From Telmatocola sphagniphila (GTDB lineage Bacteria > Planctomycetota > Planctomycetia > Gemmatales > Gemmataceae): a DNA stretch of 32,000 nt. The position numbers and the translations under genes are program-made. Location: NCBI RefSeq assembly GCF_018398935.1, contig NZ_CP074694.1:3480001-3512000 (forward strand), read 5' to 3'. Position 1 is the first letter of the stretch. The number at the start of each line of letters is the position of its first letter. Under the pieces are notes generated by a model. That model was not told the DNA's origin, did no database searches, and worked only from the letters and a program-made list of their open reading frames with translations. Positions 2,547 to 27,900 of this stretch are shown here, piece by piece.

Positions 2547-3353
2547 TTACCGTCGGAAACCGCGGCCTCCCCAACCACCGCGACCGCCCCAGCCGCCACC
2601 CCAGCCACCGCGGCCCCAACCACCGCCATAATAACCTACACTGATACCGCCCCCGTAATATCCAGGATAGCTGCTATAAGAGTAGCTGGGGTAGGAGTAA
2701 TAGGTGGTAGAAGGATAGTACGTGGGATCACTATAAACTACCGACGGGGAGTAAGTTGGCGTTGAGTAATACGTTGTCGGAGTACCGGAGTAGGTCGTCG
2801 ATGGCGTATAGTAGCTCGTTGTCGATTGCGGATAGGCTCCTTGGTAGATGACCTGACCGTTTCCACTCATCGGCGGAAGGTTGGTCGGTTGAATGTTCTG
2901 ACTGTTCGTGTTCTGATTGTTCGAGTTCGTTTCGCTCGTGTTATTCGAGCTCGAGTTCTGGTTCGAATTTTGATTCGAGTTCGGATTGGTTTTGTTGTTT
3001 GGATTGTTCGAACTGTTATTGTTGTTGCTCTGCGGTCGATTCGGGTTGTTGGGCTGGTTCGGGTTGGTATTTTGTGGACCATTAGGCATCGGTTGAGCCG
3101 GGCCATTTCGATAAATTGGACCTCCATAACCGGGATTTCCGTACACCGGACCGCCGTTGACGGGTCCACCATACCCCGGATTTCCGTAGACAGGACCACG
3201 GTATACCGGTTCGCCTCCGCCGCAGCAGCTCGATACTACCGGCGCGGGTTCGTAATAGGCCGCGCTGGAACGTGGCGGGCACTTGGCATTTCCCGTACCT
3301 GTGAAAGCGAGCACTGAACCGACCGCCGCCATACTTAAAAGCTTCCTACGCAT
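2547..3353 (-). CDS. secreted low-complexity protein (Gly/Tyr/Pro repeats, Asn/Ser/Gln tract, Ser/Thr/Tyr tract, C-terminal GGW/RGG repeats)
   Basis: The start is moved to ATG 3351-3353, preceded by AGGAGA. This gives the signal peptide MRRKLLSMAAVGSVLAFTGTGNA. The composition is modular: an exact duplicated GPVYGNPGYGGP, a long N/S/Q/P tract, a YYSTPTYSPS-type tract and a terminal GGGWGRGGWGGGWGGRGGWGGRGFRR. The gene has its own terminator. Confidence 0.7.
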   Translation of the reverse strand: MRRKLLSMAAVGSVLAFTGTGNAKCPPRSSAAYYEPAPVVSSCCGGGEPVYRGPVYGNPGYGGPVNGGPVYGNPGYGGPIYRNGPAQPMPNGPQNTNPNQPNNPNRPQSNNNNSSNNPNNKTNPNSNQNSNQNSSSNNTSETNSNNQNTNSQNIQPTNLPPMSGNGQVIYQGAYPQSTTSYYTPSTTYSGTPTTYYSTPTYSPSVVYSDPTYYPSTTYYSYPSYSYSSYPGYYGGGISVGYYGGGWGRGGWGGGWGGRGGWGGRGFRR

Positions 3354-3522
3354 AGTGTTTCTCCTGTTGAAATAGAATGAAATGCGTACAACGCATGTGA
3401 CGAAAATATGGGCAAGGTTCATGCCAAAAGGGCGAAGGAAAATTCACGACTTGCAGCGAGGTTTGCAATCTTCTGTTTCTTGAAATTTAGCTTAGTAGAG
3501 ACATACCCCAAACGAATTCCGA

Positions 3523-6133: not shown

Positions 6134-6883
6134 ATGTCGGCGATACTGCGAACCACAGATCGAAGGCTTTTCGATTTGGAATCGGAACTCCGCGAAACGC
6201 ACAAGGATGGGGTTAAAAATCTCCGCCTGACTGCCGAAAGTGGAGAAATCGGCATCGAAGGGGAAGCCCGCAGTTATTACGACAAGCAGCTGCTCTTAGA
6301 GCATCTGCGTTCCTACACCGATCAGCGGATTTCCGGCGCACGGCTGATCGTTCGAACCAATATGTATCTGAATGAGCATCTATCGAAAATGAAACCTTAC
6401 TCCGAAGCCGAGAGCAAACCCCAACCTTTATTTGTTTCTCCGATCAAATATCGTGTGCTGGTCGCCTCCAGCGATCACAACTGGCTGGGCAAGTGCGTTC
6501 GTCAGTTAGAAAAAGTCGGATGTAAAGTTTCCGCCGCACGTACAGGAATCGAATGTCTGGAAGAAATCCGCAAAGATATTCCCGACATTCTTGTGGTTCA
6601 TGATCGGCTGAATTGGGGTGGAGCGACCGGTGTGCTCGCCGCGGCTGCGGACAAAGGATACTTCAACCGCTTGCGGGCTCTCTACTGCGGCATACCGGAG
6701 ACCAGTTTAGACGAGGTCACTGAAATGCCTCATTTACCTGCGGAAATTTACCTGACCCGTTGCGAGGGCATTGAACAGATCTCGGAATTCGTGCAGTTCG
6801 TATCCATTGGTTATTTCGATGGGGCGACTTGCCCCCACGAAATTTCCCGTGTCGAGCATGCCTTCTTTTATCCTCCTCAATAA
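6134..6883 (+). CDS. hypothetical protein with BON-like N-terminal segment and degenerate receiver-like domain
   Basis: 249-aa ORF with an ATG start. LRLTAESGEIGIEGEARSYYDKQLLLEHL resembles a BON domain pattern. The central segment YRVLVASSDHNW...PDILVVHDRLNWGG follows the response-regulator beta1/beta3 pattern. The acidic pair is replaced by SS, and His sits at the usual phospho-Asp position. Confidence 0.6.
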   Translation: MSAILRTTDRRLFDLESELRETHKDGVKNLRLTAESGEIGIEGEARSYYDKQLLLEHLRSYTDQRISGARLIVRTNMYLNEHLSKMKPYSEAESKPQPLFVSPIKYRVLVASSDHNWLGKCVRQLEKVGCKVSAARTGIECLEEIRKDIPDILVVHDRLNWGGATGVLAAAADKGYFNRLRALYCGIPETSLDEVTEMPHLPAEIYLTRCEGIEQISEFVQFVSIGYFDGATCPHEISRVEHAFFYPPQ

Positions 6884-8198: not shown

Positions 8199-10805
8199 TC
8201 AGGCATGGCTGGCAATCCGGCTCAGTAGTTTCCGCAACGCTTCCATCGAAACCGGTTTGGTGAAGTGATAATTGAAACCCGCGGCATCCGCTCGCTTTTT
8301 GTCATCCTCCTGTCCCCAACCGGTCAAAGCTATCAGATTGATGCTTTTCCCCCAGGGATAAGTCCGGATGCGCTTGGCCGCTTCGTAGCCGTTCAATCGG
8401 GGCATGCCGATATCCATGAAGATCACTTCGGGCTGATACTCCTCCGCCACTTCCACGGCCATGGCCCCATCGTGCGCTTCTCGTATTTCATAACCCATTA
8501 TCGAAAGCATCATTGACAAACTCTGCACCGAATCCAGGTTGTCATCGGCAACTAAAATCCGAATGCCCTTGCCATCGACTTCCTCCCCGAGTGCGCAGGT
8601 AGTATCGTTTGCTTTCACAGGCTCCGCATCCTCCAGAACTGGTAATCGCACGAGAAACTGGCTGCCATGACCCGGGCCATCACTATGCGCTTCGACGCTT
8701 CCATTATGCATTTCAACCAGCCCCTTCACCAGGGAGAGTCCGATTCCTAAACCGCCCTGAGTTCGTTCGAGGGCGGAATCGACTTGGGAAAATATTTCGA
8801 AAAGTCGATTCAGATGCTCCGGCCGAATTCCTATTCCGGTATCGGAAATCGATATCGCCACTTCAGCGCCTTCCCGCCGGGCGGTAATCCGAATTTCTCC
8901 GCCGCGATCCGTATATTTGGCGGCATTCACCAACAGATTCCCAAAGACCTGAGCGAGCCGAGTGAAATCGCCCTGGATATAGATCGGCTTTTTGGGCAGT
9001 TCGACAATCAGCGCGTGACCGGCGGCTTCGATGGCCGGTCGGCTGGATTCGATGGCACTCGTGAGAATCACTTCGAGGGTAACACGCTCTTTCTGAAGGG
9101 TAATCTTGCCGCGCGTGATCCGCGAGACATCCAGGAGATCGTCCACGAGTCGGGTGAGATGGGCCCCCTGCCTTTCGATGATCTCGCGAGCATTCTGCAG
9201 ATCGGGATTGGATTCGCCTTTCAGCTTAAGATATTGGGCGGCATTGCGAATGGGAGCCAGGGGATTGCGCAGTTCGTGTCCTAGAATGGCGAGAAATTCA
9301 TCCTTTCTACGGTCGGTTTCCTGAAGTTGCTTCAACAATCGGAGTCGTTCGTAGCTGATGGTCACGTAGTGGGTGACGGTGCTGAGAAATTCCAATTCGT
9401 CCGCCTCGAACCAATCCCGCGAACGACTGGCGAATGATAAAGTCCCCAACAATTTTCCGCCGACGATCAGCGGGTTGCAGGCATAGGCGCGCAGACCCAG
9501 CCCTTTGATCAACTGCGTCTTGGAATCCTCGCTCTGTTGAATGAAATTGGCCACCATGGAACGCCGGTGCAGAGCAACGTTGCCACAAATGGCTTGCCCA
9601 AAATTCAATCGTGTCAGTCGAGGCAAATCTTCCGGTGGAATTCCGAGGCAGGAATTGAGCCGCAATTCGCTTCCGCTTTCCGTGACCAGAAAATTGATGT
9701 AGCAATCGAGTCCGAAGTGCGGAGCGATATTCGCAAAAAGTTTCTGCATCATGCTGCCTGGATCTTCCGTAGTCAGCAAAATGGCCGCGGCTTCCCAAAG
9801 TAGTCTCTGGCGATCGGCTGCTTTTTTGGTTTCATCGATATCCGTGCAAGTCCCAAACCATCGGATGATTCTGCCGCTTTCGTCGCGAACCGGGACAGCT
9901 CGACCCAAATGCCAGCGATAGCCGGCATTTAAAGAATTGAATAAGCGAAATTCGATTTCATAAACGTTTCCGGTCTTGAGGGAGTCGTACCAGCGCGCCA
10001 GGCAATTCCCGATATCGTCCGGATGCACTACCGGTCGCCAGACGTCAGAGCCGATGCCCTCGGAAAGAAACCCGGTAAATTCCTGCCAGCGTTTATTGAA
10101 ATAATCGAGATAGCCATCCGCGCGAGCCATCCAGACGATTTGCGGCAGGGCATCGGCCAGCTGCCGGAAGCGAGATTCGCTCTGCCGAGCGGCGGTTTCG
10201 GATTGAACGGCTTTACGCGCTTTCTCCTCGGCCAGCGTTCGCGCGGCTTCTTCGAGTTCCAGTCTTCGGACTGTGTCTTCCTGAATTTTGCGTTCCGTCA
10301 GATCGGTGACTACTAAACCTAAGGCGATACTACCGGATAACGGAAGCACATTTAAAGCCAAGTGGACGGGAATCGAAGCCCCCTCCTTGGGATGCAGCAA
10401 AAATTCCCGTTGAATCTGAGTGCTTTGAGCTTCATGCAGCACTCTATGCCATTCGGATCGATCGAAGGGCGCTATGAATTGCTCGAAGGAACTTCCCCGG
10501 ACCTTCTCCTGTGAAACATTGATCATGCTCGCAAAAGAGTGATTGCAATAGAGGATTGTCCCATCCAGACTTAAACTGGCGGCTCCCTGCCCAGGTTGCA
10601 TAGCTTCGATCAGGACCCGATAAAACTGATCGGCTCCTTCCAGCGTATAAACTCGATGTCCGTTTGGGCCGGCGACTACTAAGGCATCGACCTCCCCACT
10701 GCGAATGGCCTCGAGCGTCGCTTCCGTTTCGATCAAACGAAGTTTGAGTTCTTCGTTTTCCGTCCGAAGCTGCTCAATGTCTGGGTAGTCAGGCATGGCC
10801 CGCAT
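8199..10805 (-). CDS. hybrid sensor histidine kinase (coiled coil-PAS-PAS-GAF-HisKA-HATPase-receiver), last gene of the kai operon
   Basis: 868 aa. Motifs: H-box FLAILGHELRNPLAP, N-box LLVNAAKYT, G1 DTGIGI and G2 GGLGIGLSLV. The C-terminal receiver is canonical (VADDN, FMDIGMP, ALTGW, FTKP). The N-terminal region has PAS-like and GAF-like segments. The start (ATG 10805 or 10796) overlaps the stop of the upstream kaiB. Confidence 0.9.
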   Translation of the reverse strand: MRAMPDYPDIEQLRTENEELKLRLIETEATLEAIRSGEVDALVVAGPNGHRVYTLEGADQFYRVLIEAMQPGQGAASLSLDGTILYCNHSFASMINVSQEKVRGSSFEQFIAPFDRSEWHRVLHEAQSTQIQREFLLHPKEGASIPVHLALNVLPLSGSIALGLVVTDLTERKIQEDTVRRLELEEAARTLAEEKARKAVQSETAARQSESRFRQLADALPQIVWMARADGYLDYFNKRWQEFTGFLSEGIGSDVWRPVVHPDDIGNCLARWYDSLKTGNVYEIEFRLFNSLNAGYRWHLGRAVPVRDESGRIIRWFGTCTDIDETKKAADRQRLLWEAAAILLTTEDPGSMMQKLFANIAPHFGLDCYINFLVTESGSELRLNSCLGIPPEDLPRLTRLNFGQAICGNVALHRRSMVANFIQQSEDSKTQLIKGLGLRAYACNPLIVGGKLLGTLSFASRSRDWFEADELEFLSTVTHYVTISYERLRLLKQLQETDRRKDEFLAILGHELRNPLAPIRNAAQYLKLKGESNPDLQNAREIIERQGAHLTRLVDDLLDVSRITRGKITLQKERVTLEVILTSAIESSRPAIEAAGHALIVELPKKPIYIQGDFTRLAQVFGNLLVNAAKYTDRGGEIRITARREGAEVAISISDTGIGIRPEHLNRLFEIFSQVDSALERTQGGLGIGLSLVKGLVEMHNGSVEAHSDGPGHGSQFLVRLPVLEDAEPVKANDTTCALGEEVDGKGIRILVADDNLDSVQSLSMMLSIMGYEIREAHDGAMAVEVAEEYQPEVIFMDIGMPRLNGYEAAKRIRTYPWGKSINLIALTGWGQEDDKKRADAAGFNYHFTKPVSMEALRKLLSRIASHA

Positions 10806-11148
10806 CCTTTTCGGTACCCGCGGGTTTGCGAACGATATTCAGGCCGCGCAATACTTCTTCTGTTTCGAGAAGGTCGCCTACCAGTCGTCGAATCGGGAGC
10901 GGCAGTACTTTGATGAGCGTGGGAGTAACGATGATCTGCTGTTCCTTTGCCAGATGCGGTTGCTGATGGATATCAATTATTTCGAGTTCGTAGCAGTCTT
11001 TCAAATATTCTTCGCAGACTTTTTGAATGCGTTCCAGGACTTCCTGGGTTCGCGCGGTCACTCCGGCCACGTAGAGACGCAAAAAGTACTTTTCCGCTCC
11101 GATCCTGTTCGCTGCCTCGGGGAGGGATTCCCACCGGTCGTTTTCCAT
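10789..11148 (-). CDS. kaiB: circadian clock protein KaiB homolog (second copy, 119 aa)
   Basis: LRLYVAGVTARTQ...TPTLIKVLPLPIRRLVGDL matches the KaiB core. It has N- and C-terminal extensions relative to ~100-aa KaiB. There is a 9-nt gap after the first kaiB. Confidence 0.88.
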   Translation of the reverse strand: MENDRWESLPEAANRIGAEKYFLRLYVAGVTARTQEVLERIQKVCEEYLKDCYELEIIDIHQQPHLAKEQQIIVTPTLIKVLPLPIRRLVGDLLETEEVLRGLNIVRKPAGTEKDAGHA

Positions 11149-11157
11149 GGCATTCTC

Positions 11158-11481
11158 TTATTTCCTGCGCGGACGTAGTTGCAGCCCAACCAGAAGGCTT
11201 TCAGTATCGGATAAATCGCCAATGATTTTTCGCAATGGCTCGGGCAATTTACGGACGAGTGTCGGGATCGCCACGATCTGATCTCCTGCCGCGAGTTGCG
11301 GATTGACCAGAAGATCGATCACTTCGATCTTGTAGCGACCGGCCAGATGTTCTTCGCAGACTTTTTTCAAGTTAGAGAAAGCCGTTAAGGATTTTGGAGT
11401 ATGACCCGCCACATATAAGCGCAGCTCCCAGACATTCGGGTCTATTAGGGCTTGTACTCGTTCGATGGATTGCTCGCCCAT
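11158..11481 (-). CDS. kaiB: circadian clock protein KaiB homolog (first copy, 107 aa)
   Basis: [12 protein letters not shown]...[21 protein letters not shown] closely follows the cyanobacterial KaiB core (LYVAGNTPNS...TPTLAKVLPLPVRRIIGDLSD). A strong AGGAGG RBS precedes it. There is an 18-nt gap after kaiC. Confidence 0.92.
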
Positions 11482-11499
11482 GGCCGAGTTCCTCCTTTT

Positions 11500-12960
11500 T
11501 CATCGTGCTGAGGAAATTACGGGGTCACTTCCACCCAGTAATATCCCTTTATCGCTCAGGCTAAATTGCCGTATATGCTTGGAATGGGGCATTCCGCGCG
11601 ATTTCAAAACAAATAACGATCCGCTTCGCGCACCCTCTTTCTCCTGATCGCGCAGTAAAACCCAGGTATCGATAATCGAAGAAATTCCGAAATCGGTCGC
11701 CTCCGGGGTGAAACCATTCCGAATGAGGTTCGTGAACAGGCTGGTGATTCCACGACTTTTCAAAAAATCTACCAGTCGAACCAGCATGCCTTCCGTTTCC
11801 GGGCCCGTTCCCGCCGCGATAAAGTTACTGATTGGATCGATGACCACGATCTTGGGTGCAATATCACTGACAGCCCGGTTAATCAGCGCCAGATGCATCT
11901 CCAGCCCGTACATGCTCGGCCGATGGGACAGGATTTTCAGCAATCCCTGGCCGACACACTTTTCCAGGTCGAGTCCTATGGAACGCATATTTCGGATTAA
12001 CTGTCCCGGAGATTCTTCGAACGAGAAATAGATACATTTCTCCCCGCGCTGGCAGGCGGCGGCAGCAAAATGCGCAGCCAAACTGGTTTTACCGGTTCCG
12101 GCCGTGCCCGAAATCAAGACGCTGGTTCCCCGCAGATAACCTTTCCCTCCGAGCATCTGGTCCAGTGCGGTAACACCCGTTGAAACCCGATCTGTAAATG
12201 CCGGATGATTCATTCCGGCCGAGGTAATCGGTACGACCCAAAGCCCATCGGAATCTATGAGGAAAGGAAATTCATTGGTACCATGAGCCGAGCCGCGATA
12301 TTTGACGATCCGCATCCGGCGCGTGGAAACCTGTTCGGTGACCCGATGGTCGATCATGATTACACAATCCGAGACATATTCTTCAAATCCAAAGCGCGTT
12401 AAAGTACCTTCCCCGCGCTCGGCGGTAATTACCGCGGTTACTCCCTTTTCTTTCAACCAGCGGAAAAGTCGGCGAATCTCCGCTCGCAAGATTTGCATGT
12501 CGGAGAAACCGCTGAACAGAACCTCCAGAGTATCCAGTACTACTCGCTTGGCACCGATGGAATTAATGGCATGGGCGATGCGTACAAATATCCCTTCCAG
12601 ATCGTATTCTCCGGTCTCGCTGATCTCACTTCGTTCCAGATAAACGTAGTCGACCAGGAGTTTTTTTTCGGCGATCAAGCGCTCCAGATCAAACCCCAGG
12701 GAACGAACATTGGCAGCCAGATCGGCGGCCGTCTCCTCGAAGGCCATCATCAGTCCGGGTTCGTTAAACTGAGTGGCCCCCCGCACGAGAAATTCGATGC
12801 TCAGCAGAGTTTTTCCGCAGCCCGGGCCGCCGCAAATCAACGTTGGGCGAGCTAGAGGAAATCCTCCCGAAGTCACTTCGTCCAAGCCTTTGATTCCAGT
12901 CGGGCATTTCGGAAGAGTCTGCATGGCGTGATTCCTGGTGGTTTCAATCGACTGACTCAC
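11500..12960 (-). CDS. kaiC: circadian clock protein KaiC homolog (double RecA-like ATPase)
   Basis: 486 aa. CI has Walker A GGPGCGKT and catalytic EE (MMAFEETAAD). CII has Walker A GTAGTGKT and FSFEESPGQ. The phospho-loop TDFGISSIIDT aligns with cyanobacterial TDSHISTITDT. The GTG start at 12960 is preceded by GGGAGA; an alternative ATG lies at 12924. Confidence 0.95.
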   Translation of the reverse strand: MSQSIETTRNHAMQTLPKCPTGIKGLDEVTSGGFPLARPTLICGGPGCGKTLLSIEFLVRGATQFNEPGLMMAFEETAADLAANVRSLGFDLERLIAEKKLLVDYVYLERSEISETGEYDLEGIFVRIAHAINSIGAKRVVLDTLEVLFSGFSDMQILRAEIRRLFRWLKEKGVTAVITAERGEGTLTRFGFEEYVSDCVIMIDHRVTEQVSTRRMRIVKYRGSAHGTNEFPFLIDSDGLWVVPITSAGMNHPAFTDRVSTGVTALDQMLGGKGYLRGTSVLISGTAGTGKTSLAAHFAAAACQRGEKCIYFSFEESPGQLIRNMRSIGLDLEKCVGQGLLKILSHRPSMYGLEMHLALINRAVSDIAPKIVVIDPISNFIAAGTGPETEGMLVRLVDFLKSRGITSLFTNLIRNGFTPEATDFGISSIIDTWVLLRDQEKEGARSGSLFVLKSRGMPHSKHIRQFSLSDKGILLGGSDPVISSAR

Positions 12961-13153
12961 TTGATCGATTCTCCCAGCGGACGATTTTTATTAAAAAAGT
13001 AAGACCTGGATTTCTCAGCACACTGTTATCTTGATTGATTCACAGGAATGAGTCTGTCGGCTTTTAAACTTACTAACGATTTACTGTCATTCTGGGCCGA
13101 TTTCAGAGCTAGAGTTTTTAATCCGATCCCGAGAATATTTCGTAGGGAACTGT

Positions 13154-13202
13154 AAAAGCAAAGAGCGTCCGGTTTTTACGCCGAGGCCGCTCTTTGCTTT
13201 TT
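13154..13202. terminator. bidirectional-looking rho-independent terminator separating the membrane-protein gene from the kai operon
   Basis: 10-bp perfect stem GCAAAGAGCG / CGCTCTTTGC (13158-13167 / 13188-13197). It is flanked by AAAA on the left and TTTTT on the right. It lies 11 nt downstream of the minus-strand stop at 13213. Confidence 0.65.
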
Positions 13203-13212
13203 AGACCGTTAT

Positions 13213-13911
13213 CTAGGGAACCGAGGAATACTCTAAACGTCGGTTAGTTTCTCGGGTTGTCAGAGGGACAATTCGGAAAGTTGGTCCCAGACCAACCAAT
13301 GAACCAACGGCTGTAGCAAGCAGAGTGATCCAGGTGCCGGCGAAGGCAAACCAGGAAATCCGAGTCGCGGCATCCCAGGCCGCTTTTTCCGCACGTTCTT
13401 GAGCCTGGGGATCGTTTACAAAATCATTGAGTTGCTTCTTCCAGCTATCTACCATCTCGGGGGAAACCCCATTTTGGCGAGCTACCGCTTCCCAATTTTG
13501 GTTCGTACTCACACTGGAGATCCCGGGTGCCATGGCCGACATGGTGTTCAATCCCGTCTTGACTCCAATTGCCCCGAAGATGAGAAGTAAAAAGCAGACC
13601 ACGGACCACATAACTACCCCGTGGAGAATGGCTTCCACTTTATTTTCCCGGGTGATAAACAGACTTGTAACGAGGCCTCCCACGAATAGTGCACTGGCAC
13701 TGATCAGTAGCGTCCAAACTATCGCCCCGATTTGGAGACTCTTGGGATTCACTTTTTCGCTTATCGATAATCCGACGGCCGCACCCAGGATAGCCAGTAG
13801 AGAGTAAAAACCGATGGCGATCAAAGCGCCGCCCAGTATCGCTCCCCAGTTAATCCGCGTGCCGACGGAGTTGAATTCTTTATTGGCACTCATATAGAGT
13901 TCGTCGCTCAT
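13213..13911 (-). CDS. hypothetical multi-pass membrane protein
   Basis: The start is moved to ATG 13909-13911, preceded by AGGAGA. Several hydrophobic Gly/Ala-rich helices are present (WGAILGGALIAIGFYSLLAILGAAVGL, IVWTLLISASALFVGGLV, VMWSVVCFLLLIFGAIGV, WFAFAGTWITLLATAVGSLVGL). I recognise no named family. Confidence 0.7.
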   Translation of the reverse strand: MSDELYMSANKEFNSVGTRINWGAILGGALIAIGFYSLLAILGAAVGLSISEKVNPKSLQIGAIVWTLLISASALFVGGLVTSLFITRENKVEAILHGVVMWSVVCFLLLIFGAIGVKTGLNTMSAMAPGISSVSTNQNWEAVARQNGVSPEMVDSWKKQLNDFVNDPQAQERAEKAAWDAATRISWFAFAGTWITLLATAVGSLVGLGPTFRIVPLTTRETNRRLEYSSVP

Positions 13912-13998
13912 AACACTATCTCCTGTAAATATGTGAAACCCATTTCGGAGGATACCGTTCAATCAGTATCTCTTACCGTAGGGGGTAAATTTCCCGCG

Positions 13999-14118
13999 TT
14001 ATCGGTTGCAGCCGCCGAACAAAAACGCCAGGATGATAAAGGGCAACGGCAGCCCCAGTAGCATGGATGCCAAACCCCACCGCAAATTTCCGGCTCGTCG
14101 AATCGTATTGCGCAACAT
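13999..14118 (-). CDS. candidate small membrane protein (39 aa), not in the ORF track
   Basis: My translation is MLRNTIRRAGNLRWGLASMLLGLPLPFIILAFLFGGCNR. The ATG at 14116-14118 is preceded by AAGGAG at good spacing. It has a basic N-terminus followed by one hydrophobic helix. It lies 87 nt upstream of the same-strand membrane-protein gene. Confidence 0.4.
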   Translation of the reverse strand: MLRNTIRRAGNLRWGLASMLLGLPLPFIILAFLFGGCNR

Positions 14119-14252
14119 GGTCAACTCCTTATTTCTAGGTGAGTCAATTTCGCTCACCTTTGGGAATGAATCCATTTCAGACAGATGAAGTCAGACTTAA
14201 GCAAAAAGTGTTCCAACTATTTTTGCGGCAACCCGAGTTGAAACGAAAATGA

Positions 14253-14286
14253 CTTTGCGATTGGGTATGAAATCCCAATCGCAAAG
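14253..14286. other. perfect 13-bp stem-loop in a long intergenic region
   Basis: CTTTGCGATTGGG (14253-14265), loop TATGAAAT, CCCAATCGCAAAG (14274-14286). There is no clear U-tract on the plus strand and a partially T-rich tail on the minus strand. Confidence 0.5.
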
Positions 14287-14837
14287 TGAACGAAAAGCTA
14301 TATAGGGAACCGCCGGAAGAAACACTCGGCGGATTAAGTGGGAGGGTATATGAACACTGATCGAGAATGGGTTATTCTTGAATCAGATTATTTTTTCCTG
14401 CGGGGAAACTGCTGGAGATTCTTTGCTCGACAAGAGGGGATCTTGTCAGGCTCAATTCGAAGAACCTTGTTCGCGAGCCGATAGTTTGAAAAAATGAAAC
14501 TCGGATCCGCATAAAATAGAGGACATCAGGAAGGTCATGCGAGTTCGCTCCAAGAGAACTTTATTAAAAATCCAGTCGTGTTTACCTCGCAATGGCTGTG
14601 CCAGACTCAAAATTGTTTCAATCAATTTCATCCACAGGGCGGAATCTCGGCTAATGACCTGAGAAGGTGCGAGGAGTATGAGTCCTCGCAGGGCCTTAAG
14701 AGTGGGTTCCCCGAAAATTTCCGTCCGGCGCTGGACGATGCCGCACTCAAGTTTGAGAAGTTACTTGCGCGATGGTACGGCGGAGATCATTTAGGAGCGA
14801 GTAGGAAATTTTCCTGATTCGAGTCGCATCATAAAAC

Positions 14838-14854
14838 CGGCACGAATTATGCAT
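14838..14854 (+). promoter_or_regulatory. sigma-54-like -24/-12 promoter upstream of the pseudo-receiver histidine kinase
   Basis: CGGCACGAATTATGCAT against TGGCACG-N4-TTGCW. GGCACG is exact and the GG-to-GC spacing is correct; the -12 element is ATGCA. It ends 67 nt before ATG 14921, leaving room for a TSS and the AGGAG RBS at 14906-14910. Confidence 0.35.
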
Positions 14855-14920
14855 TTTGCCTTTTGAATTTCTGGAGAGTTCCGATTTGTAAGCTGTGAAA
14901 ATTCCAGGAGTTACATCATC

Positions 14921-16141
14921 ATGCAGAATCCCAAGGAAGACCCGAAGCCCGCAATTCGGATATTACTAATCGATTTGAATCTCGAAACGGAAGCCTTAAT
15001 CCAAAGCTATATCAGAAAAATCGAACATGCTCGCTTCCATCTCGATTCGACGACCGACCTCGGATGCGCTGCGGAATCGATACGGGAAAATCGACACGAT
15101 ATCTACCTACTTCATTTTTCCCCCGCCGGGACCAAACATCTGGATTTTTTGAAGGCCGTTCGAAAGGAGGGTTCCAAGAATCTCATCCTGACCCTTCTGG
15201 ATACCGCCGACGAGAAAGCCGAACGGCTCTTAATGGAGGCCGGAGCGAATGATATTCTCGTCCAGGACCAGTTCGATTCGTCCGATTTGGATCGCACCAT
15301 CCGCTATGCTTTACTTCAGAGGAAATCCGAAGCACAGCTGGAACGCCTGATCCAAGAAAGGACGCTCGAGCTGGCATTTGCCAATCAGACATTGCTGCTA
15401 GCGGATAAGCGGAAAAACGAATTTCTGGCTAGTCTGGCTCATGAACTTCGAAATCCCCTCACGCCCATCCAAAATGCGCTGGAAGTTATCCAAAATTCCA
15501 GCCAGCAACCTGGCCAAGTGGAGAAAGCGCGAGGAATCATCGAACGCCAATTGCAGGATCTGATTCGCTTAATCGACGACTTTCTCGTCATCTCCCGAAT
15601 CACTCGAAATAAGCTAACACTTCAATCGGAACAACTCGATTTGGCCGATGTTCTAAATCACTCGCTGGAAACTAATCAGCCTCTGATCGATAAAGCGCAT
15701 TTGAAAATCGAAAAGAATTTCCAGGAAGGAGATTGTTTCGTGTACGGAGATCGCATGCGATTGGAGCAGATTTTTGGCAACCTGCTCAACAACGCCATCA
15801 AGTTCAATCGACCTCATGGTAAGATCACTCTATCGGTTAAAGCAGAGAAGAAGCAGTACGTTACGCGAATTGCCGACACGGGAATCGGAATACCTCGACT
15901 GGAGTTGCAGGCTCTGTTAGCGTCTACCCGAAGCGAAGCCTTTAAACCCAACCATACTTCCAACGGCCTCGGTTTGGGCCTCACTCTCGTCAAAAAACTC
16001 GTTGAGATGCACGGCGGCTCCGTATCAATTCAAAGCGCGGGCAAAGACCAGGGCACCGAGGCCATCGTCCGACTCCCCAAATGGACGCGATGCGAAGAAT
16101 CTTCGGCCTCCTCGAAGTCGGCGACCAAAGGCGCCCTGTAA
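14921..16141 (+). CDS. histidine kinase with N-terminal pseudo-receiver domain
   Basis: 406 aa. H-box FLASLAHELRNPLTP, N-box LLNNAIKFN, G1 DTGIGI and G2 NGLGLGLTLV. The N-terminal ~130 aa follow the receiver fold pattern but lack the key residues. IDLN replaces DD, LLHFSP replaces the phospho-Asp, LTLLD replaces the conserved Thr, and LVQDQ replaces the conserved Lys. Confidence 0.85.
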   Translation: MQNPKEDPKPAIRILLIDLNLETEALIQSYIRKIEHARFHLDSTTDLGCAAESIRENRHDIYLLHFSPAGTKHLDFLKAVRKEGSKNLILTLLDTADEKAERLLMEAGANDILVQDQFDSSDLDRTIRYALLQRKSEAQLERLIQERTLELAFANQTLLLADKRKNEFLASLAHELRNPLTPIQNALEVIQNSSQQPGQVEKARGIIERQLQDLIRLIDDFLVISRITRNKLTLQSEQLDLADVLNHSLETNQPLIDKAHLKIEKNFQEGDCFVYGDRMRLEQIFGNLLNNAIKFNRPHGKITLSVKAEKKQYVTRIADTGIGIPRLELQALLASTRSEAFKPNHTSNGLGLGLTLVKKLVEMHGGSVSIQSAGKDQGTEAIVRLPKWTRCEESSASSKSATKGAL

Positions 16142-16520: not shown

Positions 16521-16675
16521 GCCTCAGGTTGCGCGCCACGGATGGCCTATACATTTTTCTATTTTGCAAATCTCCACTCTTTCATATTTTTCGCAATAGT
16601 CCACTAATCACTTTTCCGCGGCATCCTTCTTGCGAGACTTCTAGCGACGGAATTACTCAACTAGGAGGCAGAAAA

Positions 16676-17581
16676 ATGCGATCGATATATATTTCAGGCT
16701 TAGCGGTATTAGCACTTACAGCTAACGCAACCGCTCAACGTGCCCCCGCTGGAGGTACCCCTCAGGCGCCCTCGGGTGGTAACACGACTCCCCAGACCCC
16801 TCAAGGAGGCAATAATCCGACCGCACCCGCGGGAGGCCAGAACCAACCGCAAAACCCAGGCACTAACCCGGGGACAGGAAACCAACAGAATCCCACTCAA
16901 AACCCCAATCAAAACCCGAAGCAAAATACCAATCCGCTACCGAACAATCAGAACTTTAATGCGCAACGGCCGTACAACTATCCGTTCTCGATTTACGGTA
17001 TGAACGGCGTTTCGAAGTCTTTGAACCTCACCCAGGCACAAATGGACCGGCTGAACTCGCTCACCCAGAACACTCAAAATCGATTCAACCGCGATTTCTC
17101 CGGACTGAGCAATTTGAATGAGACCGAGCGAGCCAACCGAATGAATGAACTCAATCGCCAATATCAATCCGCCTGGATGAGTGGCGCTCGAGATATTTTT
17201 AATCAGAATCAATTCAATCGCTATCAGCAATTACACTATCAATACGGAGGCTTCAATACCTTGAATGACCCGGATATTCAGACGAAACTTAATCTGACTG
17301 CGCAACAGAAAAACAATCTTTCGAACTCCATCGATTGGAGTCGCCAGCAATTGCAGGAGATTCAACGCGTGGGCCAAAGCAATCCGGATCGTGGAAATGT
17401 TATGTATAGGGAATATCAGTCACAGTATCAAAATCGATTGAATCAGTTTTTAACCCCCGAACAACAAAAAGTCTGGCAACAACTTGTTGGAGAAAGTTAT
17501 AACTTCCAACCGACTTTCAACAATACTAATCCCAATACGTCCCCGAATAACTCTAACAACTCTAATACGCCACCCAGGTAA
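16676..17581 (+). CDS. secreted Asn/Gln/Pro-rich protein with three LTXXQ-type motifs (CpxP/Spy-like helical repeats)
   Basis: The start is moved to ATG 16676, with AGGAGG at 16664-16669. This gives the signal peptide MRSIYISGLAVLALTANATA. The mature protein begins with a Pro/Gln/Asn/Gly tract. The helical region contains LNLTQAQMDRLNSL, LNLTAQQKNNLSNS and FLTPEQQKVWQQL. Confidence 0.75.
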   Translation: MRSIYISGLAVLALTANATAQRAPAGGTPQAPSGGNTTPQTPQGGNNPTAPAGGQNQPQNPGTNPGTGNQQNPTQNPNQNPKQNTNPLPNNQNFNAQRPYNYPFSIYGMNGVSKSLNLTQAQMDRLNSLTQNTQNRFNRDFSGLSNLNETERANRMNELNRQYQSAWMSGARDIFNQNQFNRYQQLHYQYGGFNTLNDPDIQTKLNLTAQQKNNLSNSIDWSRQQLQEIQRVGQSNPDRGNVMYREYQSQYQNRLNQFLTPEQQKVWQQLVGESYNFQPTFNNTNPNTSPNNSNNSNTPPR

Positions 17582-17718: not shown

Positions 17719-18387
17719 GTGTACTCTCTATTACTAATTTCGCTGTTCAGTTTCGCTCAACAGGATGTTCAAATTTCCAAAACAGAAAAATATTATTTTG
17801 CGGTAATGTCCTGGGAATCGCAACCGTATGATCCGCTGAAAACCCATACCTTCGCTACGGTGATCCACATGAAGGACGGCAAGGCGGAACAGACGACGCT
17901 TTCCTGGTTTCCGGCTACCGAAGTAGTCCGACCCGTGCAAATACTTCCGGAAAAAGGAACTAATCTCAGTCTGGAAAAGTCCCTGGAATTTGCAACGCAA
18001 AACAAACTTCGAGTCAGTCTGTGGGGACCCTTCGAAGTCAGCGAAAAGTTCTATGACTCTTTCAAATTACATGTCGGTAAGTTTGATCGGGGAGAAGTCG
18101 CTTACCGCCCCTGCAGTGGAATTTCCGTGAATAAAGATTCCGTATTCGATTGCGCTCATGCGGTCGAGAATTTTTATCGAAAGGATCAATCTTTCATTGG
18201 ACCGATGGGTTTTGGAGACGAAGTTTCCGCAAGAATCGCAACGGAATTATCTGGCGAGTATCTCGACGGAAAGAAACCTCATCCGGAAGTGCTGGAAAAG
18301 CTCGGACTGGACAAATACCCGTTTACCAAAAAGGATTTAATCCTTCCGACGGCCGTCGGGGAAGATATTAAAAAGCCCCGCCCCTGA
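17719..18387 (+). CDS. hypothetical exported protein (222 aa)
   Basis: GTG start with AGGAG 7 nt upstream. The N-terminus YSLLLISLFSFAQQ is hydrophobic and signal-like. No family recognised. Confidence 0.6.
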   Translation: MYSLLLISLFSFAQQDVQISKTEKYYFAVMSWESQPYDPLKTHTFATVIHMKDGKAEQTTLSWFPATEVVRPVQILPEKGTNLSLEKSLEFATQNKLRVSLWGPFEVSEKFYDSFKLHVGKFDRGEVAYRPCSGISVNKDSVFDCAHAVENFYRKDQSFIGPMGFGDEVSARIATELSGEYLDGKKPHPEVLEKLGLDKYPFTKKDLILPTAVGEDIKKPRP

Positions 18388-24733: not shown

Positions 24734-24906
24734 CACTAAGGCGAAACTTATTTTCAGTCCCGAATCAGCCGCTTTGAGATCCGGCAGAAGTTATTTGCGG
24801 CTGCAATAAATGGAATAGTAATTCTGGCGAATGAATCGGTAAACGCAGTACAATCGTCAAAATCGATATCTATTGCGCTACTGCGATTCTAGTGAGATCT
24901 GCATCT

Positions 24907-27900
24907 ATGAAGCCATCCTCCGTTTTTCGCAAATTCATGATCGTCGTGGCGAGCATGGTTTGCGTCGGCTATCTGGTGTTCCGCGCGGCCTACACCTTCA
25001 ATCATTCCACCAATTATGCCACCTTCGCGTCCCTGTTCCTCTACATTGGGGAACTGTTCGGCATCATTAACTTGCTGCTTTACTTCCTGCAGGTTTGGGA
25101 AGTGAAAGAACCGGCGGCCATGCCGGTGATCGAAGGGCGAACCGTCGATGTGTTCGTTCCGACATACAACGAGGATCCGCAACTTCTGCGAGCGACCCTC
25201 GAAGCCTGCGTTCGCATGGATTACCCGCACCGCACCTTCGTCCTCGACGACGGACGTAGGCCGGAAGTAGCGGCCCTCGCCCACGAACTCGGTGTGAATT
25301 ACATCACCCGGCCCGATAATCGCCACGCCAAAGCCGGGAACCTGAATAACGCTTTCGAGCAGACCGACGGTGAATTCGTCATCATCCTCGATGCCGACCA
25401 CGTTCCGGAACCTCACTTCATTACCCGACTGATTGGATACTTCGCCGACGAGCGAGTCGGTTTTGTCCAGACGCCGCACGCTTTTTACAACTTCGATTCG
25501 TTCCAGGCTCAGTTGAATCACAAATCGCGCAAGTACTGGGAAGAAGGCGATTTGTTCTACCGGGTGATCCAGCCTGGTCGTAATCACTGGAATGCCCCGA
25601 TTTTCGCCGGTTCGGCGGCCATGTTCCGTCGGAGTTCGCTCAAGGATATTGGCTATATCGCCGTTGAAACGATCACCGAAGACCTGCACACCGGGATGCG
25701 TATGCACGCTCGGGGCTGGAAAGGAATCGCCATCACGGAACGACTGGTGGCCGGTCAGGCCGCTCCCGATATCACCACCTTCCATGCTCAACGCCTGCGT
25801 TGGGGTGAAGGTAACCTGTCGATCATGGCCTACGATCAACCGCTGACGATGCGCGGCCTGTCCATGCCGCAGCGGCTATGCTACTTCGGCTCGATGATTC
25901 ACTGGGCGAGTGGTGTTTTCAAGCTCGCGATTTATATGACGCCGATTTTGATGCTCTTTACGGGCGTCCCGCCGGTGCGTGAATTCTCCTGGGAATTGGC
26001 CGTCGTTACCGTCGTTTACCTACTCGTTTCGCTGATGGCTTTGAAGATCGTCAGCAACGGCTACGGCTCGATCATCAATTCCGAACTGTTCTCGATGGTG
26101 AACTTCTGGACGCAGATCAAGGCGACTTTCCGGGCGATTTTCCGTCGCCGCTTCCAGCGATTCGTGGTGACGCCGAAGCGAGCCTCGGCCGGGCCTCGAA
26201 CCGTCTGGCCTTACATTCGACCGCAGACTTACATCATCATCGCGGGTGTGCTCGCCTTGTTCTGGGGTTGGTCCCGACCGGCTCTGGGAATTTCCAATGA
26301 CTATTACAAGTCCATGGTGCCGACGTTCTGGGTGCTGTTGCACATTTATTTTGCCTACCTGGTGACGCGCCGCGCCTTCTGGCCGGCGGATAAACGCTAT
26401 GCTACCCGGCACGTTGTTCACCTTCCGGTGGAGTACGATTCGCTCGCGCATGGCGAAACTCGCTTTGGTGTGTCGGTCGATCTGAACGATTCGGGTATGT
26501 CTCTCATCGCCTACGAAAAACTGCCCACGGATCGGGAAATCCGCCTGATGCTACGCGGAGCGAGCGAAGTGTTAAAGTTGAAGGGGGAAATTCGCTCGGT
26601 CAACGAACTGGCCCGCGGGCGCGTTATTGATGGCTATCGTTATGGCATCGCTTTCAAGAACCTGACCACACCTCAGATCGATGCAATCAATCGAATTTGT
26701 CTCCAATATGCTGTGCCGCGCATGTACGCCGAGTACGACAAGGGGAACCGCAACACCCGCTGGAATCGCTTCGTCAACTGGCGCGATCGGGGTATGGCTC
26801 AGCGTCGCGGCAGCAATCGGTACCCGTATCACCTGCCACTGATCGTCAACCCCGGTACCAGCGAAGAGACGGCCTGTTACTCTTCAACCGAAGATATCAG
26901 CCGGGACGCTACCGCCACCTTCGTGGATGTGAACATCCCCGCCAATACAGTTGTCGGTTTCATGATGCCGACCCCACTGGGCGATGTTCGCGGCTTGGGA
27001 CGCGTGGTTCGATCCTCGCCGCAATTCTTTGGCGGCCGAACCTACTATCGCTGCATCATGGAGTTTCAGGATTTTGAAGGCCAGGGACGAACCACTCTGC
27101 AATCGCTGGTAAATCCGGTCGAAACCGCCCATTTGAACGCCGTCCTGAAGCCGGATAAAAAGCCGATCATTCCCCGCATGGGCATTCCGATTCTGATCAT
27201 CAGTCTGATTGCCATTCCGCTGATCATCGCTCAATTGGGTGTGTTCCGCGTAGTGCATCGCGACGACTTCAAGCTGCGGGAATTAATCCAGACCAAGCCG
27301 GATGACATCACCAGCATTCAGCAGCAGGAACTGGATCGTATTTACAACGACACCAAGAAAGATCCCTATCCGACGACGGATCGATTGGTTTTAATGCTGG
27401 AAGCACTTTCCAAGGTGGGACGACAGCGCGATCCCGAAGCGGCCAACATGGTCCGCGAGCTCGCCTCTCGCGACGAGAAGAATCTGGAATTGCGCAGCTC
27501 GGTGGTCGGAGCTATGGACCAGTTGCGTCTGCAGCAGGATGCCGAAGTGGAATATCAGAAACTTCAGGAACTGGAAAAACGGGGCGGTTTCAAAAATCGA
27601 CCCGATCTGGTCAAGAAGTTCCATCTCGCCGGCGCCCGTGTGGCGTTCAAGAGCGGCAATTTCGCGTTGGCCGCGGAGCGATTCAAGGAAATCGCTGCCG
27701 GGGAACCGAATGATCTCGCTTTACGCCGAGAATGTGCCGGGGTGATGATCGAAGCCCGGCGCTACAAGGAAGCCGCCGACTTGCTCTTCGACACTCCCAA
27801 TCTGGACGTGGAAGGCCGTCAGTTCCTGGTGGCCGCGCTAACGCTGGATAAGCAGTACGAAAAAGCCGAGGAAGAGGCCAAGAAACTGCTCGAACTCGCG

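Follow-up and report, generated by a model that had tools for sequence, protein, structure and literature searches.

How is a KaiBC system that has no KaiA connected to the rest of the cell, and what might a second KaiB contribute to it? Both questions are raised by a block of four minus-strand genes at positions 8199-12960 of a 32,000-nt stretch of the Telmatocola sphagniphila genome (contig NZ_CP074694.1, positions 3,480,001 to 3,512,000; hereafter the window), in which kaiC is followed by two kaiB genes, kaiB-a and kaiB-b, and then by a gene for a hybrid histidine kinase. We consider it reasonably probable that this locus encodes a KaiA-independent, KaiC2-type KaiBC phospho-timer or energy sensor, that it represents one copy of a four-part cassette that is conserved, and that its state would be read out via a module composed of a helix and a PAS domain (helix-PAS) at the start of the kinase. 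The genes, with lengths in amino acids (aa), are as follows.

12960..11500, minus strand: kaiC, 486 aa from GTG 12960, or 474 aa from the alternative ATG 12924 (from the open reading frame (ORF) list and direct sequence reading)
11481..11158, minus strand: kaiB-a, 107 aa, with GDLSD, a class-a KaiB
11148..10789, minus strand: kaiB-b, 119 aa, with GDLLE, a class-b KaiB
10796..8199 (alternative ATG 10805), minus strand: hybrid histidine kinase, 865 aa from ATG 10796
10242..10796, minus strand: N-terminal module of the kinase, helix plus PAS, residues 1-185

A conserved four-part cassette

When species-representative genomes were scanned with an alignment of KaiB-b, at least 588 relatives were found; 80 loci were listed, among which the window's own genome and its closest relatives do not occur. 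Every ORF of the retrieved loci was scored with class-specific hidden Markov models (HMMs), the counts being limited to kaiB-b genes with enough upstream sequence. KaiB-a is encoded directly upstream of KaiB-b in 79 of 84 cases, and kaiC plus kaiB-a lie upstream in 66 of 71; on its other side kaiB-b adjoins the effector gene, with gaps mostly of -3 to +25 nt. Among the loci listed, the bacterial carriers belong to Desulfobacterota/Syntrophales, Acidobacteriota, Bacteroidota, Chloroflexota, Planctomycetota, Verrucomicrobiota and Gammaproteobacteria, and the archaeal carriers to Methanoperedens, Bathyarchaeota, Methanomicrobiales and Methanotrichaceae. The cassette is also present in three cultured strains, Frigoriglobus tundricola, Schlesneria paludicola and Lignipirellula cremea. 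Judged by these profiles, the window is itself such a four-part cassette, with a class-a KaiB, a class-b KaiB and then a protein that starts with helix-PAS.

The arrangement is not invariant. Two divergent cassettes share one 24-kb contig in L002 (1747-9959, where the gene calls are frameshifted), and two stand in tandem in L026 (6669-11668). Three kaiB genes in a row were seen as a-b-b in L079 (6251-7336) and as a-a-b in L084 (6267-7318), and the order a-b-a occurs in several metagenome loci. Variants with a single kaiB (L145, 156-2792; L169, 1221-7469; L149, 1-2854; L170, 2816-6182) comprise kaiC, the helix-PAS module and either one class-a kaiB or one weakly b-like kaiB; they may mark states from before the duplication or from after one copy had been lost. 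Since the module accompanies a single kaiB in these operons, it is tied to Kai cassettes generally, and the a/b pair has the appearance of a division of labour that arose later.

Two KaiB classes

Both KaiB proteins match the Pfam family PF07689 (cutoff 27), KaiB-a with 93.1 bits and KaiB-b with 94.5 bits, and both fall below the cutoffs of NF006798 (110; 97.7 and 83.3 bits, respectively) and TIGR02654 (145.3; 93.8 and 80.2 bits). The best match of KaiB-a in the PDB is the Rhodobacter sphaeroides protein, KaiB-RS (8FWJ_M, 110 bits); KaiB-b reaches approximately 79 bits with KaiB-RS and with cyanobacterial KaiB alike. A search with the single KaiB-b sequence extends to SasA (6X61_B, 3.5e-6) and the SasA-type model NF006800 matches KaiB-b through its N-terminal region at 1.8e-9, whereas KaiB-a does not reach the SasA N-terminal domain.

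KaiB-b carries an N-terminal extension of approximately 20 residues, which in class b contains an F-E-x-A motif, together with the signatures IDIxQQP and PTLIK. Alignment columns specific to one class are concentrated where β2 ends and in the loop that follows (IDLLxNP in class a, IDIYQQP in class b), with further class-specific positions at 8, 25, 42, 66 and 67, and dozens of positions are conserved within each class. Across the first six related loci, identity is 55-90% among class-a proteins and 43-99% among class-b proteins, compared to 39-52% between the a and b proteins of one locus. All 159 of 159 KaiB sequences have their nearest neighbour in their own class, and the clusters are pure at every cut; class separation was judged by these two measures, the two-cluster cut of the tree built by the unweighted pair group method with arithmetic mean (UPGMA) being dominated by the outlier L085. 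The class HMMs score KaiB-a of the window at 187/126 and its KaiB-b at 101/163. KaiB-RS groups with class a, and cyanobacterial KaiBs are about equidistant from both classes. KaiB-a evolves slowly, its top 120 homologs being 74-88% identical, and KaiB-b evolves faster, with the identity of its homologs dropping from 72% to approximately 50%. Regarding the positions implicated in fold switching (Thermosynechococcus elongatus numbering), G89 is kept in both classes and in both window proteins, and D91 in about 80% of each class; in the window, D91 is replaced by Q in KaiB-a and by N in KaiB-b, and K58 by Q in both.

On these comparisons, KaiB-a and KaiB-b are evidently two old, separable KaiB classes in a fixed order and not the product of a recent local duplication. 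A first-pass annotation of the window had described the tandem paralogs correctly in length and motif (107 aa with GDLSD and 119 aa with GDLLE) and had suggested that they may split roles; that the two are non-redundant agrees with two separable classes that keep their order across phyla. It had also treated them as a local duplication in which kaiB-b is simply the less canonical copy; neither view holds, the pair being ancient and widespread and KaiB-b not merely less canonical, because its Pfam score equals that of KaiB-a and its class differs.

The helix-PAS module of the kinase

The kinase comprises, in order, the Pfam domains PAS, PAS, GAF, HisKA, HATPase_c and Response_reg, of which those downstream of the N-terminal module lie at the following positions.

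9849-10103, minus strand: second PAS domain of the kinase (Pfam)
9360-9755, minus strand: GAF domain of the kinase (Pfam)
9108-9305, minus strand: HisKA domain of the kinase (Pfam)
8637-8972, minus strand: HATPase_c domain of the kinase (Pfam)
8223-8558, minus strand: receiver domain of the kinase (Pfam)
8223..10103, minus strand: variable sensor and output part of the kinase (Pfam coordinates converted from 868-aa ORF numbering)

Its catalytic boxes are intact (H-box GHELRNPL, then NLLVNAAKYT, DTGIGI and GGLGIGL), as are the receiver residues (DD...FMDIGMP...T...K). Against NF006800 it scores 123.7 bits, with a cutoff of 342, and the match covers only the catalytic core. The first PAS domain is preceded by a helix with the motif RLxExExTLxAIRSGEVDALVV.

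When the kinase was compared by BLAST with 44 kinases encoded just downstream of kaiB-b, residues ~8-180 gave an alignment that begins at both N-termini with 42 of them (31-71% identity); the catalytic core was a second shared region, and the second PAS and the GAF domain were rarely shared. With an HMM of the module, 77 of 85 cassette loci give scores of 140-247 bits (225 bits over residues 9-186 of the window kinase), compared to 25-67 bits for other PAS proteins there, and the match is mostly at the start of the ORF directly after kaiB-b; four of the eight loci without a match run out of sequence. The association also holds in the reverse direction. A reciprocal metagenome scan with a six-sequence alignment of the module alone returned 80 loci, and a kaiB lies directly upstream in 62 of the 71 that have at least 350 nt of upstream sequence, 59 of these being class b. 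In an exhaustive search with the module, 421 clusters passed E <= 1e-30 and 5,127 passed E <= 1e-10. In almost all of the top 150 matches the module sits at the extreme N-terminus, and the outputs attached to it vary: HisKA, HisKA_2 or HisKA_3 kinases, GGDEF-EAL proteins, AAA+ σ54 activators, or none.

From these alignments, it is evidently the first ~180 residues of the kinase that constitute the conserved fourth component of the cassette, the rest of the PAS-PAS-GAF-HK-REC architecture being variable. The earlier proposal that the kinase is the dedicated input/output partner of the Kai genes is thereby upheld in regard to the partnership, with an output role indicated, and has to be narrowed in regard to the part of the protein that is dedicated. 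The module can be read as an input or docking domain, because it is a conserved N-terminal domain with interchangeable outputs, and we presume it to be the Kai-coupling (docking) domain; the swappable outputs point to an output role for the kinase. There is a precedent in KidA, whose N-terminal PAS domains can bind fold-switched KaiB, and outside cyanobacteria PAS genes often adjoin kai homologs (PMC9478674). In two Bacteroidales loci (L054, 4773-5498; L062, 7325-8047), the gene after kaiB-b encodes the helix-PAS module only (~240 aa), which suggests that it can act as a separate adaptor protein.

A tail-less KaiC of the KaiC2 type

Pfam PF06745 matches KaiC over two stretches (E = 2.8e-108). 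The protein scores 670.8 bits with NF006799 (cutoff 408) and 330 bits, below the cutoff of 546, with the cyanobacterial equivalog TIGR02655; its best PDB matches are R. sphaeroides KaiC (KaiC-RS; 8DB3/8DBA/8FWI, ~588 bits), compared to ~315 bits for cyanobacterial KaiC. Both halves hold a Walker A motif and the catalytic Glu-Glu pair (GPGCGKT with AFEE, and GTAGTGKT with SFEE), and the Ser-Ser phosphorylation site at residues 427-428 (GISSIID) aligns to S413/S414 of KaiC-RS. Such a Ser-Ser pair defines the KaiC2 subgroup, with KaiC1 and KaiC3 having a Ser/Thr pair instead (PMC10076222). The placement of this KaiC among the KaiC clades, which the first-pass annotation had left to a later check, thus comes out, by structure-match scores and the Ser-Ser site, as KaiC2-type and closest to that of R. 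sphaeroides. Its nearest named homologs, at 64-74% identity, all come from Planctomycetota (F. tundricola, Gemmata sp., Pirellulales, L. cremea, S. paludicola and Thermoguttaceae) and a DUF1501 protein is encoded near the cassette, both in agreement with the non-cyanobacterial origin surmised from the letters alone.

A feature passed over in the first-pass annotation is the C-terminus of this KaiC. KaiC2 proteins typically carry a C-terminal extension of ~50 aa, a coiled coil that joins two hexamers (Pitsawong 2023, PMC10076222). In the window only 13 residues follow the last CII motif, SDKGI, leaving no coiled-coil tail, and KaiC-RS can be aligned with it up to about residue 461 of 568. Since the window protein ends where the engineered tail-less construct of KaiC-RS ends, it presumably forms a single hexamer and not a dodecamer. 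In an alignment of 65 full-length cassette KaiCs, the Ser-Ser site is present in all 65, Walker A in both halves in nearly all, and the Glu-Glu pair in each half in 62; 96-115 residues follow the SDKGI motif in 56, and seven are tail-less, namely those of the window, Gemmata (two contigs), Frigoriglobus, Schlesneria, Lignipirellula and one Vicinamibacterales metagenome-assembled genome (MAG). Lengths of 471-512 aa prevail among the closest KaiC homologs; therefore, the tail-less form is common among the nearest, planctomycete-type homologs. The tail-less KaiC2 of the Vicinamibacterales (Acidobacteriota) MAG (L082, 5306-6775, 489 aa) lies outside Planctomycetota, and therefore tail loss may have occurred repeatedly or have moved between phyla.

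Proposed mechanism

By homology with the R. sphaeroides KaiBC system, the KaiC of the window would autophosphorylate on its Ser-Ser pair without KaiA, as we propose because it has neither an inhibitory A-loop nor a tail. Its phosphorylation and ATPase state would track the cellular ATP:ADP ratio, and the KaiB proteins would bind the CI ring after ATP hydrolysis, driving the system back to the unphosphorylated state, so that the outcome would be an hourglass-like timer or energy sensor and not a free-running clock. KaiB-a and KaiB-b would act as non-redundant partners of KaiC, the helix-PAS module would dock onto the KaiB-KaiC complex, and the state of KaiC would in this way control the kinase together with the phosphorelay that runs via its receiver domain. 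All of the biochemistry proposed here is inferred, as are the identity of the KaiB that may contact the module and the putative physiological signal.

Which KaiB would serve which partner was addressed by a mirror-tree analysis of 49 complete cassettes with bootstrap confidence intervals. KaiB-b co-varies with KaiC more closely than KaiB-a does (r = 0.70 versus 0.49, the interval of the difference excluding zero), a comparison in which the low variance of KaiB-a may depress its correlations. A simple division, in which KaiB-a serves KaiC and KaiB-b the effector, was considered as a candidate, in line with the earlier suggestion that one KaiB binds KaiC and the other the kinase, and was not supported by the mirror-tree.

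Several observations weigh against the proposed timer or energy sensor as outlined. The module tracks neither KaiB better than the other (r = 0.51 with KaiB-b and 0.46 with KaiB-a, the interval of the difference spanning zero). AlphaFold2 (AF2) models built from class-specific alignments are of low confidence (predicted local distance difference test score, pLDDT, ~61) and have the same ground-state-like topology for KaiB-a and KaiB-b. Given the mirror-tree and AF2 outcomes, we therefore commit only to non-redundant KaiBs and to a module that would read the complex. KaiB-b is not required for the module, as it occurs in single-kaiB operons, and we know of no experiments on two-KaiB cassettes. 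In addition, KaiC of the window does not have the tail that KaiC-RS needs for fast autodephosphorylation and for hexamer stability with KaiB. The truncated KaiC-RS (1-490) exchanges nucleotides and autophosphorylates at normal rates, shows little autodephosphorylation and disintegrates as a hexamer upon binding of KaiB-RS (PMC10076222); therefore, the coil-dependent reset mechanism of R. sphaeroides cannot be transferred to the window unchanged. Finally, the Legionella KaiBC homologs are cited in published work as tied to stress response and not to timing.

Alternative explanations

The Legionella precedent, together with what has been proposed for Pseudomonas KaiC-like proteins, suggests the possibility, which we consider less probable than the timer or energy sensor but still worth serious attention, that the same module signals stress or the energy state and has nothing to do with day-night timing. 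The window comes from a planctomycete that is not phototrophic, and other metagenome and sequencing-run contigs encode identical KaiB-b proteins; among the carriers of the cassette are methanogens, Methanoperedens and syntrophs, to which light cycles would offer no evident cue, and stress-response phenotypes are cited in published reports. Nevertheless, the closest characterized homologs, the KaiBC systems of R. sphaeroides and R. palustris, act as hourglass timers (PMC10076222, PMC4794148), and timing and stress are not separable by sequence data. A different function again, as an anti-phage defence system, is extremely improbable, as is the idea that the second kaiB arose as a duplicate and is now redundant or in decay. 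PADLOC returned generic P-loop and HATPase matches (mad8, 2.4e-12 over ~85 residues) but no defence-family architecture, the ORFs of both kaiB classes are unbroken in 79 of the 84 loci, which span many phyla, with dozens of positions conserved within each class, and the base composition is native.

Other alternatives concern the division of roles between the two KaiBs. According to one of them, KaiB-b would be the free-standing counterpart of the SasA N-terminal domain, an early binder of CI that carries or activates the co-translated kinase, and the slower, fold-switching KaiB-a would later displace it, closing a timed window of kinase activity as in the competition between SasA and KaiB in cyanobacteria; SasA could then descend from a kaiB-b-like gene fused to the adjoining kinase gene. 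The N-terminal region of NF006800 matches 20 of 20 class-b proteins (best 3.8e-10) and 8 of 20 class-a proteins (best 5.8e-5), and a class-b profile reaches SasA 6X61_B with 31 bits (1.3e-6) and 1T4Y with 27.5 bits, compared to 14.5 bits (E = 0.22) for a class-a profile; the single-sequence searches show the same asymmetry. Moreover, kaiB-b is always the effector's neighbour, at the small gaps given above, and its co-variation with KaiC (r = 0.70) is as expected for a direct CI binder. However, the absolute level of similarity to SasA is low and the greater diversity of the class-b alignment may account for part of it, the effectors begin with a PAS domain that is absent from SasA, no retrieved locus contains a KaiB-kinase fusion, the module is also found with a single class-a KaiB, and AF2 gave no locked thioredoxin-like fold for KaiB-b. 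We regard this scheme as an outside prospect. It is very unlikely, in turn, that KaiB-b is a positive element that replaces KaiA and antagonizes KaiB-a, with delayed feedback giving self-sustained oscillation without KaiA. Two distinct KaiBs are indeed conserved with one KaiC across phyla, and a tail-less KaiC2 needs some resetting factor, but KaiB-b resembles neither KaiA nor KaiA3, a core sequence of the KaiC-binding type is common to both KaiBs, and tailed KaiC2 proteins are also paired with two KaiBs, so the second KaiB is no compensation for tail loss.

Several of these elements could be combined into a wider scheme. Taken jointly, KaiB-b would be an unstudied class of SasA-like adaptors that, with helix-PAS, forms a general plug-in output (kinases, cyclic di-GMP (c-di-GMP) enzymes, σ54 activators) for KaiC2 across bacteria and archaea; competition of KaiB-b and KaiB-a for CI would set a timed window without KaiA, SasA would be a fused descendant, and the tail-less, single-hexamer KaiC2 of planctomycetes would be reset differently from that of R. 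sphaeroides. This combination is speculative, and we would be somewhat surprised to see all of it borne out.

Relation to known Kai systems

The best-studied relatives are the R. sphaeroides and R. palustris systems (Pitsawong 2023, Ma 2016), in which kaiC-kaiB is followed by a PAS histidine kinase gene and whose operons have been described with one kaiB. The window shares with them a Ser-Ser KaiC2, the absence of kaiA and a PAS histidine kinase in the last place, has in KaiB-a a protein of the same class as KaiB-RS, and differs from both in having a class-b KaiB between kaiB-a and the kinase, and from R. sphaeroides in its KaiC without a coiled-coil tail. With the cyanobacterial KaiABC/SasA/CikA/KidA system it has in common a double-domain KaiC with an autokinase site, KaiBs with G89 and a histidine kinase as output; KidA provides the precedent for binding between PAS domains and KaiB, and KaiB-b is weakly similar to the SasA N-terminal domain. 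Unlike in cyanobacteria, there is no KaiA, the phosphorylation site is Ser-Ser and not Ser-Thr, and KaiC and the KaiBs score below the equivalog cutoffs. Moreover, SasA has a fused KaiB-like N-terminus, whereas the window kinase starts with helix-PAS and the KaiB-like part is a separate gene.

The KaiA3-KaiB3-KaiC3 system of Synechocystis (Köbler 2024), found in some non-cyanobacteria as well, is likewise a non-canonical Kai system, but in the window kaiC comes first, is of KaiC2 type (Ser-Ser) and has no receiver-plus-KaiA-like gene upstream. The kaiC and Nt_HK pairs of the Ramlibacter group (De Luca 2011) resemble the window in that a dedicated histidine kinase comes after kaiC and bears an N-terminal domain, specific to its family, for which docking on KaiC has been proposed; they have no kaiB and a KaiB/SasA-like kinase N-terminus, in contrast to the two free KaiBs and the helix-PAS of the window. 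Surveys report kinases or GGDEF/EAL proteins adjoining kaiBC in non-cyanobacteria (De Luca 2011; Schmelling 2017), and the AF-cluster paper states that some bacteria hold up to four KaiB copies, of which one was studied. Public annotations already label the cassette genes KaiC and "KaiB family protein". Our full-text literature search found no description of the conserved kaiB pair or of the module, and older reviews may mention them. The variant with two KaiB classes and a dedicated helix-PAS effector, and the tail-less planctomycete KaiC2, thus appear to be unstudied.

Junctions, flanks and neighbourhood

The ORF list and direct reading of the sequence bear out the four same-strand genes of the first-pass annotation, with gaps of 18 nt between kaiC and kaiB-a and 9 nt between kaiB-a and kaiB-b. 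The kaiB-b stop codon TGA (10791-10789) lies inside ATGCCTGA, so that kaiB-b overlaps the kinase gene, as had also been noted, by 8 nt if the latter starts at ATG 10796 or by 17 nt if it starts at ATG 10805. The former start has an AAGGA Shine-Dalgarno sequence 8 nt upstream, and independent gene calls in other assemblies that encode an identical KaiB-b place the kinase at 865 aa, which corresponds to ATG 10796. A strong AAGGAGG Shine-Dalgarno sequence precedes kaiB-a. The base composition of the four cassette genes is that of their neighbours. Upstream of kaiC lie two further features.

12961..13153, minus strand: untranslated stretch upstream of the operon, presumed to hold its promoter, with a GGGAG Shine-Dalgarno sequence before GTG 12960
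13154..13201, minus strand: intrinsic-terminator-like hairpin (ΔG = -27.3 kcal/mol, z = -3.88)

The strong upstream terminator noticed earlier is confirmed by folding of this hairpin (13201-13154), which only 1 of 200 shuffled sequences matches (z = -3.9). The hairpin serves as terminator for the membrane-protein gene that lies upstream (13962..13213, with the stop codon ending at 13213) and shields the operon from read-through. A promoter scan of the minus strand upstream of kaiC found no sigma-70-type consensus, there is no convincing terminator 3' of the kinase gene (folding z = -0.3), and no Rfam family matches across the window. None of the 22 window ORFs scanned contains the KaiA Pfam domain and no receiver-plus-KaiA-like gene adjoins kaiC in the window, which bears out the earlier statement that the window has no kaiA-like gene.

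A second histidine kinase gene (14921-16141, plus strand, 406 aa) is located, in divergent orientation, ~2 kb upstream of kaiC. Its product has an N-terminal receiver-like domain without the phospho-acceptor Asp (a pseudo-receiver) and a DHp/CA core 43% identical to that of the operon kinase. We considered it as a CikA-like partner on account of the pseudo-receiver and set it aside, as it does not adjoin the cassette in related loci. This gene and the divergent membrane-protein gene are separated by ~960 bp (13963-14920) of lower GC content (~0.46), with no ORF longer than 79 aa and no Rfam match. Five sizeable ORFs near the operon have no Pfam match (13213-13962, minus strand; 16529-17581, plus; 17719-18387, plus; 6134-6883, plus; 2547-3422, minus), and none of the three that were scanned against NCBIfam matched; the first of them is the multi-pass membrane protein encoded directly upstream of kaiC. 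Farther away, 24892-31053 (plus strand) encodes a 2053-aa protein with a family-2 glycosyltransferase/cellulose-synthase-like domain, a c-di-GMP-binding PilZ domain and a very long TPR array.

Significance

The cyanobacterial clock is presumed to descend from KaiBC systems that have no KaiA, and, to our knowledge, such systems have been dissected mechanistically only in R. sphaeroides, which has one KaiB. A second KaiB class, encoded beside the effector gene, belongs to a large proportion of KaiC2 systems, many of them archaeal, and the cassette described here offers a concrete, testable answer to how Kai systems outside cyanobacteria may be wired to the cell, with helix-PAS as a named candidate docking domain and a specific hypothesis for the origin of SasA. 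Its occurrence in three cultured strains makes these questions directly testable by biochemistry and genetics. Because the planctomycete KaiC2 naturally does without the tail that is required in R. sphaeroides, it would constitute a natural experiment on how the KaiC hexamer is reset.

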